64,000 nucleotides of DNA from Eledone cirrhosa (Eukaryota), in NCBI GenBank assembly GCA_964016885.1, contig OZ024755.1:26970001-27034000 (forward strand), in the 5' to 3' direction. The notes under the pieces are model-generated. The model did no database searches, was not told the DNA's origin, and saw only the letters and a program-made list of their open reading frames with translations. Below are positions 1 to 63,105 of the stretch, in pieces. The translations under genes and the position numbers were made by a program. The stretch's first letter is position 1. Every line of letters starts with the position of its first letter.

Positions 1-250
1 TATATATATAAAAATGAAAATGTCTGTCTGTCTGTCTGCAGTCGATGCATTCCCACAGTTTCCATCCAATTTTGTTCAAATTTGATACATAGGTTATTTA
101 GCTCCAGGAGCACGTCAACATATAGTTTAAATCGTGCTCTTCTCTAAAATAGTTCTGGGGTTATTTAAAGACGGTCCTGTTGATGAGAGAGGAGGGTCTT
201 CATTTACAGTGGCGAAAGGTGTGCCTGGCAACGATGGGCTCTTTTGCTAG
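1..250 (+). mobile_element. Non-autonomous Helitron-like element (5' end cut off by window)
   Basis: TATATAAAA start, (GTCT)n, then CCAATTTTGTTCAAATTTG motif. Ends with a GC-rich subterminal hairpin-like GCCTGGCAACGATGGGC and CTAG|T. Same architecture as 2334-2966. Confidence 0.6.
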
Positions 251-286
251 TATATGTATATATATAACACTTAAAGTTATATATAT

Positions 287-17546: not shown

Positions 17547-17905
17547 GAAGTTATATTTAATTTGTTGGGATACAACAGGCAAAATATTTTTATGTAACTG
17601 ATATAAAGCACTCAACAAGTTATTGGAGTAAAAATACAATATATTAACAAATGGAAACTATATTTATAAAACCATATTTATTTCATTATACATATTTCAA
17701 GGACACCAAAGCAAATTATAGTGCGCTTTCATTATAATATAGATCAGTTTTATAAACAAATATTAAACAATGCGACCATTTCAGTTGGAAGCTCCCGGAT
17801 ATTTTGTCTGATGAAAGTGCACTATAATTTGCTTTGGTGTCCTTGAAATATGTATAATGAAATAAATATGGTTTTATAAATATAGTTTCCATTTGTTAAT
17901 ATTAT
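17524..17905. mobile_element. Fold-back Penelope-like/retrozyme element in (TA)n
   Basis: 17638-17732 is the reverse complement of 17811-17903. Homologous to 55296-55737. Confidence 0.75.
17800..17864 (+). ncRNA. Type I hammerhead ribozyme motif
   Basis: TATTTTGT-CTGATGA-AAG..CTT-GAAA-TATGTA-TA-ATGAAATA; 8-bp stem I with G-U wobbles. Confidence 0.7.
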
Positions 17906-17924
17906 ATATATATATATATAATAC

Positions 17925-31398: not shown

Positions 31399-31720
31399 GG
31401 AGGCACATGGCTTAGTGGTTAGAGCATTGGTCTTGCAATCGAAAGGTTGTGAGTTCAAATCTCAGACCAGGTGATGTGTTGTTTCCTTGAGCAAGACACT
31501 TTATTTCACATTGCTCCAGTTTACTCAGCTGTAGAAATGAGATGATAGGAACTGCAAAGTGGTCGTGGAGGTGCCACGGAAAAAAAGCACCCAGCACTCA
31601 CTGTAAATGAGGTTGGTGTTAGGAAGGGCATCCAGCTGTAGAAATGAAGCCAGAATCAGTTCCCGTCCCACCCTTGCAAGCAGGGAAAAAGCGGACGTAA
31701 AATGAAATGATGATGATGAT
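31399..31720 (+). mobile_element. SINE family A
   Basis: Consensus match with a small internal deletion. Confidence 0.9.
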
Positions 31721-42567: not shown

Positions 42568-42910
42568 TGGAAGCACATGGCTTAGTGGTTAGAGCATTGG
42601 TCTTGCAATCGAAAGGTTGTGAGTTCAAATCTCAGACCAGGTGATGTGTTGTTTCCTTGAGCAAGACACTTTATTTCACATTGCTCCAGTTTACTCAGCT
42701 GTAGAAATGAGATGATAGGAACTGGGGTCTATATCATTCCACTGCAAAGTGGTCGTGGAGGTGCCACGGCAAAAAAGCACCCAGCACTCACTGTAAATGA
42801 GGTTGGTGTTAGGAAGGGCATCGAGCTGTAGAAATCGAGCCAGAATCAGTTCCCGTCCCACCCTTGCAAGCAGGGAAAAGCGGACGTAAAATGAAATGAT
42901 GATGAATGAT
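42568..42910 (+). mobile_element. SINE family A
   Basis: Consensus match. Confidence 0.9.
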
Positions 42911-54564: not shown

Positions 54565-55004
54565 TCATCATCATCGTTTAACGTCCATCTTCCATGCTTG
54601 CATGGGTTTGGACGGGAGTTTTCCCACTTGAGGCAAGATTGGTTGTCTTGCTCAAATAGGACTGTCTGGCGGGTTTTCTACTGCTGGATGCCCTTCCTAA
54701 CACCAACCAGGTTTACAGTGTGGACTGGGAGGTTTTTACCGTGTTACCTACACGGCCACATTACAGCGTGGACTGTATATATATATATATATATATAGGT
54801 GTGGGATGCTTAAAGCGTCCATAAGCGGTAGGCTGTTTGAGCACTCGATGCTCTTACAGAGCAGAGTATAATTTCACATAAGAAACGGGGGAGAATCAGT
54901 GGTGCGACGAATAAGATTTATTAGACATATCACAATAGTTTCTCTGGCGACCAGCTCGAGGCACGATCGATGCAATGATCAAATCTGAATCTGAAATATA
55001 TATA

Positions 55005-55240
55005 TTTAATTAGAAAGTGAACAACACAATATATAACTACTCCATTACCAAAGGTTTCAGGACCCTAGACAATATTGATATACACCTAGATCGTTCATCA
55101 GACAGAGAGGTTATCTGATGAACGATCTAGACATATATTAATATTGTCTAGTGTTCTCAAACGTTTGGTAATGGAGTAGTTATATATTGTGTTGTTTACT
55201 TTCCAATTAAATAGCTCTGTTCTATACATAGAGCACTCTT
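55005..55240. mobile_element. Fold-back element with degenerate mirror hammerheads
   Basis: Both arms start at CTGATGAACGATCTAG near the centre (about 55100-55115); CTAGACA/TGTCTAG stem II. Confidence 0.6.
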
Positions 55241-55339
55241 TTTTCCTTGCCTTTTCTTTGGAAATACTTAACACATATATATATATATATATATACAATG
55301 ATATTAAATAAATGGAAACTATATTTATAAAACCATATT

Positions 55340-55404
55340 TATTTTATTATATATATTTCAAGGGCAACCAAGACAACATTGGTACGCTTTCATCAGATAA
55401 AATA
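55340..55404 (-). ncRNA. Type I hammerhead ribozyme (mirror copy)
   Basis: Reverse complement of 55532-55596. Confidence 0.8.
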
Positions 55405-55531
55405 CAAAGTTTGTTTCATAAATAGAGACATACCCATGAAAATCATACCTTATCGTTGGAAATTCACTGGATATTCCAACCGATAAGGTATGATTTTCAT
55501 GGGTATGTCTCTATTTATAAAACAAACTTTG

Positions 55532-55596
55532 TATTTTATCTGATGAAAGCGTACCAATGTTGTCTTGGTTGCCCTTGAAATATATATAATAAAATA
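55532..55596 (+). ncRNA. Type I hammerhead ribozyme
   Basis: TATTTTAT-CTGATGA-AAG CGT ACCAA TGTTGTC TTGGT TGCC CTT-GAAA-TATATA-TA-ATAAAATA. Confidence 0.8.
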
Positions 55597-56151
55597 AATA
55601 TGGTTTTATAAATATAGTTTCCATTTATTTAATTTCATTGAATATTTACTCCAGTAAATAAATTGTTGAGTGCTCTAAATCAGTTATAAACATTTATATT
55701 TGTCGGACTTCCAACAAATTAAATACCACTTCTACTTATATATATATAATAGAGAGGGATCAGTCAATATATGAATATGATCAACACTCCGAAACAATCG
55801 TAAAACAATGAATGAAATATGAAAAATAGACTTTATCTTTGTTAAATGATATATTGAATTTTTGTTAAATTTTAATATGATATTGTAATGAACCATGTGT
55901 TTTTACATTCTATACAGATTATCTCCTGTTAAAGTTTGATATATTCTATTGTACGTTTATATCATTAGATATATATGTATATATGTCATTCGCTATTTTG
56001 TAATGATTAAATGGTCGGATTTATTCCTTGAATTTCTCTTTAAGCTTATTTTTGGGAGATAAGATGCATGTTTTAAATTATCTCAAAGATGATATCTATA
56101 ACTTTGAATGTAATATGTGTGTGGGTGTGTGTGTGTATATATATATATATA

Positions 56152-60837: not shown

Positions 60838-60919
60838 TACATAGCAAAATTGTAAAATTATAAAATTAAATTGTTTAGAACGCCAACTACAAATGAAATC
60901 ATTCTTTTCCTATTTTCAA

Positions 60920-60951
<32 letters not shown>

Positions 60952-60956
<5 letters not shown>

Positions 60957-61063
60957 AAATAAACATATCAAACATTGACAGGGGATAATTTGTAAAGAGT
61001 GTAAACTTTACACTCTTTGCAAATTATCCCCTGTCAATGTTTGATATGTTTATTTTATATATA
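60952..61063. repeat. Near-perfect hairpin in (TA)n
   Basis: AAAATAAACATATCAAACATTGACAGGGG..GTGTAAA-C-TTTACAC..CCCCTGTCAATGTTTGATATGTTTATTTT. Confidence 0.85.
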
Positions 61064-61297
61064 TAGATATATATAGATATATATATGTCAATTGACCTTT
61101 AATTTATATATATATATATATAATAATAGAATATAAAAGAAAAGCGAACACAGATATATAGATATATGTGTTCAAATCGTAAGGGACCCAATTCGCTAAG
61201 GTATAAAGGATACTAACTATAGGCAATTGGGTTCGCTTGTCTCAATTTAAGAAAAAATTAAGAAAATAAATACAAATCAGAATTGTGGTAACTACCA

Positions 61298-61375
61298 ATC
61301 ACCCAGACAACTTGTTGTTGTTTCGCAAATTTAATTGTGAATAGAAATACTAATCCAAGCTCATCAGTGGGTGAT
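61298..61375 (-). ncRNA. Canonical type I hammerhead ribozyme inside inverted-repeat element 61121-61449
   Basis: ATCACCCA-CTGATGA-GC..GC-GAAA-CAAC AACAA GTTG-TC-TGGGTGAT: 8-bp stem I, closed stem III, GUC cleavage triplet. Confidence 0.85.
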
Positions 61376-61528
61376 GAATCAGGTCCCTTACGATTTGAAC
61401 ACATATATCTATATATCTGTGTTCGCTTTTCTTTTATATTCTATTATAATATACGGCTCAGAAATATCTCTTTCTTAGAGCTATTTTGTTGTAAGAGACT
61501 ATTTTTAGTTCCTAACTCAATTTATACA

Positions 61529-61565
<37 letters not shown>

Positions 61566-61686
61566 GGAGGTGAGTTTTATTGTAGTACAATAAAGCAATG
61601 CAGATATCGGATAAGAAGCACTCTACAGTTTGTGGGACTGGAGTATGCATAATATAAGATCAAAAGATGGTTAAAGGAGTTCAATA

Positions 61687-61757
61687 TATTTTATTATGCG
61701 CATTTCAAAAACAAACATCATCAAACAATAATATTTGTGTTTTCATCAGATAAAACA
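61687..61757 (-). ncRNA. Type I hammerhead ribozyme (mirror copy)
   Basis: Reverse complement of 61886-61956. Confidence 0.8.
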
Positions 61758-61885
61758 GGAGAACATGATATGAAGGCTAAAAAAACACTTGTTGATAGTG
61801 CAGTTTTAAATCAACATATGTTGATATGTTGATTTAAAACTGCACTATCAACAAGTGTTTTTTTAGCCTTCATATCATGTTCTCC

Positions 61886-61956
61886 TGTTTTATCTGATGA
61901 AAACACAAATATTATTGTTTGATGATGTTTGTTTTTGAAATGCGCATAATAAAATA
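61886..61956 (+). ncRNA. Type I hammerhead ribozyme
   Basis: TGTTTTAT-CTGATGA-AAAC ACAAATATTATT GTTT GATGATGTTTGT TTTT-GAAA-TGCGCA-TA-ATAAAATA. Confidence 0.8.
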
Positions 61957-61986
61957 TATTGAACTCCTTTAACCATCTTTTGATCT

Positions 61987-62022
<36 letters not shown>

Positions 62023-63105
62023 GTAGAACACTGCTGGGTTAAATACATACATAGTATTTCTCTCTTCTGCCTCTTAGAACAATACATCAATTTTATGGAA
62101 TAGAATGGATTTTTAAAATAATTGTTTCTACTATTGGCACAAGGCCAGCAATTACCCAGTACATTACTGGTACTTTATTTTATCAATCCCGTAAGGATGA
62201 AAGGCAAAGTTAACCTCGGAGGGATTTGAACTCAGAATGGCAAGGGCCGTATCTCTATGCGTCAAAGCATGGCGTCCGACCCTCTACCGATACTGCCAAT
62301 TCATTTAAAATAATGTTTTTGCAATTCCTTCATCCATGTGTGGGTCTGACAAGTATGGTAGGGTTTGATGCATGTTATCTATTTTATTTATTGATTACAT
62401 AGATATTAATTTTGCCCACCTAGACAAAAAATACATCAACAAAAACATACACTCCACGGAAGTGAGGCTTCTCTGTATGTTGTCAGTAGTTTAATGACTT
62501 ACAACAAGTATTGTCTGCCTATTTATTAAACTAGGTAGACAATACTGAGACAATTCAGCCCCCTTTTCTGCTATCTGTTAATTTACATATCTGAATCTGT
62601 TTCTGTTGTCTCTGAAACTTAGTTCTTTCTATGTCTCCTTCTGCTGATAAATATACTGCTATAACTATCAGGTCTATTTATATACTTCCATTATTGATTT
62701 TCTTTCCACTACTAAGAGAAATGAGATTTATTTGAAATATTCTTGTACACTGGCTAGGTTGACACTATTATTAGCCTCCATTGAGGAAGACAGAAACAGA
62801 CTATATAACTGCAGTAGATCCAAGTGAAAATACCAATGCACTACATTACATTACACATGCATTACACTTAAACATACTACACTAGGTACTGTACATAGAG
62901 TGCACATTTCCTCTTCCTGCTCTTCAGAACTGCAACTGTTAACATTTAGATAAATCTCGGGAGGTATTAAGGAAAGGGCATTTTATGATCTGATGTAAAG
63001 ACAATATCATTTTATTTACTTAAATCTATTGAATCAATTTTATTTGAAATACACAGAGATATGTGTGGGTGTTGGTATATGTATGTGTGTGTGTGTGTGT
63101 GTGTG

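Follow-up and report, generated by a model that had tools for sequence, protein, structure and literature searches.

Inverted terminal repeats (pLTRs) of Penelope-like elements (PLEs), their tails, palindromic junctions and hammerhead pairs on opposite strands have already been published. In Schistosoma, dual hammerhead motifs lie 100–700 bp apart on opposite strands, and a circular RNA template for PLEs has been proposed (PMC4209133). Penelope of D. virilis is transcribed from within its own pLTR (PMC2377424). A PLE of Anolis starts reverse transcription at two internal positions in vitro and extends both target strands (PMC11167929). Full-length L1 insertions carry an extra G derived from the cap (PMC11702581). 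The formation of PLE inverted repeats and the role of the hammerhead are named as open questions in PMC8557442.

The locus at 61562–61994 of the window (the whole 64-kb stretch of DNA analysed) is a dead, very young back-to-back insertion of a PLE end piece. Judged by the motifs of its longer relatives, the hairpin is the head-to-head pLTR of a young Hydra-type PLE.

Structure of the insertion

The two arms are complementary at 171 of 171 positions and form a perfect inverted repeat of 171 bp within (TA)n, which by sequence reading flanks the hairpin on both sides (Table 1). The hairpin described in the first-pass annotation is thus real, and its architecture, with paired arms and one hammerhead per strand, is shared with the insertion at 55296–55737. 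Only the left arm carries 87 extra element bases, which reach out to 61562 as a one-sided tail; the earlier span of 61562..61995 takes this tail in, and the accompanying text was silent on it. Full-length copies continue past the tail with native sequence towards the ORF, and only these copies have a similar second hairpin, predicted by folding, behind the long fixed end. No target duplication is readable in the (TA)n flanking the 61562–61994 insertion.

Element positions are numbered from the A at 61824 (+1). The whole long arm, +1..+258, matches a natural full-length copy (L094) at 258 of 258 bases, which indicates a young insertion, as had been suggested. The centre was also described correctly and reads CAACATAT-GTTG-ATATGTTG. 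The last G of GTTG (61823) occupies the position of the extra G in sister arms.

Table 1. Features of the insertion at 61562–61994 and its sibling in the window
Feature	Position	Strand	Basis
Sibling head-to-head insertion; different family, same long/short design, same extra-G signal	55296..55737	.	
Left (TA)n target microsatellite	61532..61562	.	sequence; (TA)n also ends sister copies
PLE tail, 87 nt, element +172..+258, long arm only; outer end is the long fixed end	61562..61648	-	
First hairpin of the tail, immediately behind the short fixed end	61618..61648	-	predicted folds, weak alone
Long (left) arm, pLTR +1..+171	61649..61819	-	
Left copy of the minimal type-I hammerhead, with a cut predicted after 61695	61687..61757	-	
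Centre insert GTTG, 4 nt, matches partner arm	61820..61823	.	sequence
Short (right) arm, pLTR +1..+171; transcription inferred to begin at 61824	61824..61994	+	
Right copy of the minimal type-I hammerhead, with a cut predicted after 61948	61886..61956	+	
Right (TA)n target microsatellite	61993..62019	.	sequence

No read or contig spanning 61562–61994 was found among the read data examined, as would be the case for a sequencing or assembly fold-back artefact. Such an artefact is extremely improbable in view of the asymmetric tail, the family-typical ends and the recurrence of the same centre at another locus (L062). In addition, short-read contigs of run X1, which may be the source sample, contain sister joints at +1 (11 of the 12 listed joints within the element, with 86 further joints besides those listed).

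Family assignment

Searching the genome at the DNA level with the 258-nt arm gave no candidates, and exact sequence patterns were therefore used to count copies across the 3.0-Gb assembly, in which the window lies at G000:C15:26970001–27034000. The exact 28-mer of the hammerhead gave 1,829 matches, mostly divergent pairs among the 100 listed, and a 23-mer of the tail gave 11,620. Longer copies run upstream through a 3′ UTR of ~1.1 kb into an ORF with a reverse transcriptase (RT) and a C-terminal endonuclease. In full-length copies the same pLTR and tail also stand in front of the ORF.

Motif reading of the longer copies found DKT, YRDD, CxCx5C, CxxC and CxH, and Pfam assigned 0 families to their ORF. 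The Hydra-clade traits present are a single ORF with RT plus a GIY-YIG-type endonuclease at the C terminus (read across copies), DKT in place of DKG, the CxCx5C linker, CxxC and CxH flanking E and N, the hammerhead in the pLTR and the (TA)n target. The inverted 5′-truncated copy with a tail on one end, a trait of PLEs, is also found. RWT stands at the place of the RWK motif. The unit exceeds the <3 kb of the clade, a descriptive tendency and no diagnostic motif; it measures 3,673 nt in L171, and tandem spacings are 3.67–3.94 kb.

A non-LTR retrozyme was considered and rejected. Such retrozymes are tandem non-coding units, each with a hammerhead (bioRxiv 10.64898/2026.07.22.740005), whereas the pair studied here is inverted and its upstream sequence belongs to an ORF-bearing element.

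Several variants of the family were observed. In L044 (2875–3940), the 3′ UTR contains two internal duplications of ~210 nt with ~93% and ~80% identity. The ORF linker of L044, before CxCx5C, has a stretch of ~100 residues rich in asparagine and proline between RT and endonuclease, which resembles the N-rich inserts of Adineta PLEs. At the locus L234–L237 (G000:C2 near 216010000), short tandem repeats begin at +129 and extend beyond the long end in mirror image on the two arms; this locus is possibly a retrozyme-like derivative of the present PLE family. Many sense-strand A-to-G changes surround the hammerhead on both arms of L232 and L233, like RNA editing written into DNA.

Hammerhead motifs and RNA folding

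The type-I hammerhead core occurs once per strand, with CUGAUGA at 61894 (plus) and 61749 (minus) and the predicted cut site AUA at 61948 (plus) and 61695 (minus). Stem I has 8 bp, stem II consists of 3 bp and a 12-bp helix that includes three G–U pairs in the fold, and stem III is the palindrome A-UGCGCA-U, which can pair between two copies. The conserved core, stems I and II and palindromic helix III are those of a minimal type-I hammerhead. The 88-nt motif had a folding z of −2.16, and Rfam at the gathering threshold did not detect a hammerhead in the 64-kb window.

The first-pass annotation had called stem I nearly identical to that at 55296–55737, and one base differs. It had also given the 12-bp helix of stem II and the stem III palindrome correctly as sequence, and the hammerhead fold is conserved. 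The description of the stems as covarying goes too far, because the two elements belong to different families and have alignable sequence only in the core, in stem I and in a single tail hairpin. Among 20 variants of the own family, picked by hand out of 65 found, 98.3% of cells pair, and shuffles score as well. These variants contained no compensatory change in stem II (9 pairs altered on one side, 0 on both), so that compensatory covariation is unsupported.

The two ribozymes lie on opposite strands and never occur within one RNA, and a read-through transcript is predicted to fold as one long duplex of ~ −290 kcal/mol that buries the motif. We infer that the hammerheads at 61562–61994 are passengers. 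Arm ends showed no excess worth claiming at the hammerhead cut. Arm-start patterns gave 223 matches at the cut and 169 at a control start 3 nt inward; automatic labels over-called junctions, and re-reading by hand left ~15 of 30 as true junctions in each set. A count confined to the youngest subfamily gave four symmetric junctions at the cut.

Outer ends and pairing of arms

The arm sample comprised 160 loci (21 redundant ones dropped), which gave 314 arm calls and 246 arms with a defined end; the loci were the first matches listed, mostly from one contig (C1), and not a random draw. The outer ends are fixed at +168/171 (short arm) or +256/258 (long arm) and always pass into (TA)n. In raw reads from a different study, both fixed ends likewise occur as loose ends in (TA)n. 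Among head-to-head pairs that satisfied the gap rule, 94 of 95 consisted of one long and one short arm, in a sample of which half was tail-anchored and short/short pairs were detectable only in the other half. Two loci (L117 and L151) are possible long/long pairs with gaps wider than the pairing rule allowed.

In 7 of the 94 long/short pairs the arms do not overlap and have no common sequence, and in six more the long arm stops at +146..171. It is the short arm that extends closer to the centre in 41 pairs and the long arm in 17 (p = 0.002); the other 36 pairs agree within 5 nt. Neither arm is therefore a plain copy of the other. Among the deeply truncated pairs, 10 of 16 were cut within 180 nt of each other, and the long arm reached further in 6 of 9 unequal ones.

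These pairs bear on cDNA fold-back or self-priming at insertion, which the first-pass annotation had proposed from the palindromic centre with its duplicated half. A single cDNA would turn back at the centre and be copied, and the second strand would be cut or stopped at +171. Self-priming at junction palindromes has been proposed for Adineta PLEs (PMC3846280), R2 shows snap-back after full-length cDNA synthesis (PMC11371274), and the commonest centre of the present family is indeed palindromic (19 of 50 listed). The close truncation points of the deep pairs would fit fold-back or coupled RTs. However, the pairs lacking common sequence stand against it, and the short arm often has centre sequence that is absent from the long arm, yet lacks the tail. 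Stops at +1 also occur without a palindrome, and 2 of the first 50 listed centres have an extra base on both arms. We consider fold-back improbable as a general route and possible for some deeply truncated pairs.

Centre junctions and the extra G

A genome-wide pattern count found 1,743 head-to-head junctions at or near one base, +1. In a hand count of the first 50 listed, 19 had a 4-nt ATAT overlap as the commonest centre, 7 had one extra G, 4 had an AT overlap, and 20 were other joins with deletions or short insertions. This agrees with the earlier expectation of non-random centres. The centre of the 61562–61994 insertion is absent from these 50 junctions.

One recurring centre and identical arms would also suit a self-propagating hairpin, either a MITE-like foldback element or a functional twin-ribozyme RNA. 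This is very improbable, as 31 of the 50 listed centres are unlike the commonest one, arms come in a continuous range of lengths that extends to full length, and the hammerhead is predicted to be buried in read-through RNA. The diversity of the junctions largely refutes it.

Arms stop at +1 even with the partner cut at least 15 bases away (13 cases), so the palindrome reflects a fixed end of the template whose sequence is ATAT by chance.

The native base preceding +1 is C. Among 4,262 arms starting at +1 with a non-native preceding base, a count that leaves out the C class, this base was G in 2,111 and A or T in 2,151. At the sampled loci, the preceding base was G in 25 of 41 arms that start at +1, compared with 9 of 72 for those cut at +8..+258 (p = 1e-7). 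In junctions with at least 2 inserted bases, G stood just before +1 in 13 of 21, whereas the other inserted bases were G in 6 of 119. Partner-templated Gs are partly confounded with this signal in the own family, where 5 of 12 non-C partner sites have a G in front of ATA. Arms of the sibling family stop at a fixed inner end of their own, and 54 of them had G before it, 24 had T and 22 had A (hand count, first 100 of 181 matches); 0–21% G was expected there from the partner sequence. The +1 base of either family is the A that ends a pyrimidine-C-A motif, which resembles the transcription initiator consensus.

The extra G looks like a reverse-transcribed cap, and the DNA junctions would then mark a start site and cap at +1. 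For the G at 61823, the source may be templating, the cap or the two together. Two points count against the cap: deep upstream truncations also show raised G (25 of 78), and the same G would arise if run-off ends of any kind received an untemplated C. Two-site priming might accordingly be right with +1 as a processed or structural stop and G from terminal-transferase activity, without a cap. The near-absence of stops at the upstream +1 in ORF-bearing arms would also fit such a stop. We regard this as unlikely, given the low G at internal pLTR truncations and the initiator-like motif at +1 in both families.

Proposed mechanism

The family has two fixed outer ends, each used once in an insertion, together with a fixed inner end at +1, an excess of non-native G before +1 and centres of the end-joining type. 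The pLTR-only insertion at 61562–61994 probably arose from two cDNAs that started at two fixed positions of a single capped RNA and were linked where both had run off its 5′ end. The endonuclease would cut both (TA)n strands, and each (TA)n 3′ end would prime reverse transcription at one of the two sites on one RNA. Both cDNAs would run off the capped 5′ end and finish in ATAT, often with a C copied from the cap. They could then anneal via ATAT, giving the commonest centre, or join with small insertions. At 61820–61823, the ends may have annealed through ATAT and been extended by 4 nt (GTTG) before they came apart and the last G annealed again, now to the terminal C of the partner. Such extension and re-annealing would leave an 8-nt duplication, the duplicated half mentioned above. 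The nearly identical cut points in many deep pairs count against independent cDNAs.

ORF-bearing copies

From 100 listed of 158 matches, 99 ORF-start arms were obtained after one locus was dropped. Of these, 44 continue beyond the upstream +1 and a single arm stops near it (1/45), whereas among 174 terminal arms extending to +7 or further, 96 stop at +1 (p = 3e-12). The avoidance of the upstream +1 had been set as a test beforehand and held in 69 new arms (29 past, 1 near). Because ORF arms almost never stop at the upstream +1, ORF-bearing copies likely come from a different template, a hammerhead-made circle or tandem read-through. A second test set beforehand was that a circle would give an excess of starts one full turn round, at +259..266, and this prediction failed with 1 of 69 new arms, whose flank is common to an earlier locus. 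A looser cluster of starts at +251..270 (8 of 99 arms) was seen post hoc only.

If both tail hairpins are needed, a linear transcript could yield only pLTR hairpins, and ORF copies would need a circle or tandem read-through. We tentatively speculate that Hydra-type PLEs may use two templates. A capped uncut transcript, with both RT start signals near its 5′ end, would make only pLTR mini-hairpins; hammerhead cleavage and circularisation would put the ORF before the signals and let the coding element be copied. If this is true, PLE hammerheads have a required role, and the centres of mini-hairpins are a genome-wide map of PLE transcription starts.

Other repeats in the window

A third, older head-to-head hairpin at 55003–55213, with a hammerhead-like core per strand (one with a changed GAAA), adjoins the insertion at 55296–55737. 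An ORF beside L247 was examined as the coding partner of the 55296–55737 family, and its membership was unsupported. At 61117–61453, inverted arms of 78 nt surround a minus-strand type-I hammerhead (61367–61306) with a full monomer-type stem III. A further 87-bp hairpin with a 1-nt centre lies in (TA)n at 60919–61093. A minimal hammerhead with the same stem I (17800–17864) lies inside a 117-bp hairpin (17629–17914). The very high-copy repeat to the right of the 61562–61994 hairpin (62114–62335) and the repeats with tRNA-like heads at 31408–31465 and 42578–42635 are probably SINEs.

Comparison with known systems

The insertion at 61562–61994 is in itself an ordinary dead insertion, and its value lies in thousands of countable sister junctions. 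These argue against published self-priming as a general route, predict the transcription start to a single base, and sort short and long copies by template. In the PLE and twin-priming literature searched, which covered few subscription papers and no supplements, we found no report of cap-G at pLTR ends or of the contrast between short and ORF-bearing arms.

The family resembles the Hydra-clade C-terminal EN+ PLEs (Craig et al. 2021, PMC8557442) in its C-terminal endonuclease, DKT, CxCx5C linker, and CxxC and CxH around E and N. It also shares their hammerhead, (TA)n target, inverted 5′-truncated copy and one-sided tail. It differs from them in its unit of ~3.7–3.9 kb (<3 kb in the clade), RWT in place of RWK, a tail of 87 nt compared with 30–40 bp, and the predominance of pLTR-only insertions.

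The palindromic helix III is like that of the minimal dimeric hammerheads of metazoan PLEs (PMC4209133), while stem II is longer here. The contrast between pLTR-only and ORF-bearing arms comes from the present analysis and does not appear in the accessible part of that paper.

Head-to-head inverted repeats, palindromic junctions and an optional tail are shared with the Adineta vaga PLEs (PMC3846280). Self-priming on an antisense template was proposed for those elements, whereas the arm pairs of the present family favour two primings and a fixed 5′ run-off.

In Poseidon_Ac (PMC11167929), as proposed here, the tail is set by a pair of internal start sites, extension takes place on both target strands, and short insertions do not need hammerhead cleavage. 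Both strands used both sites alike in vitro there, whereas 94 of 95 pairs here have one site each. The accessible text of that study contains no cap-G analysis.

LINE-1 twin priming (PMC11702581) is similar in its two primings on one RNA, microhomology end joining and extra G at complete 5′ ends. The second site of L1 is variable and the RNA is not duplicated, whereas both sites of the present family are fixed and its two cDNAs usually reach the same 5′ end.
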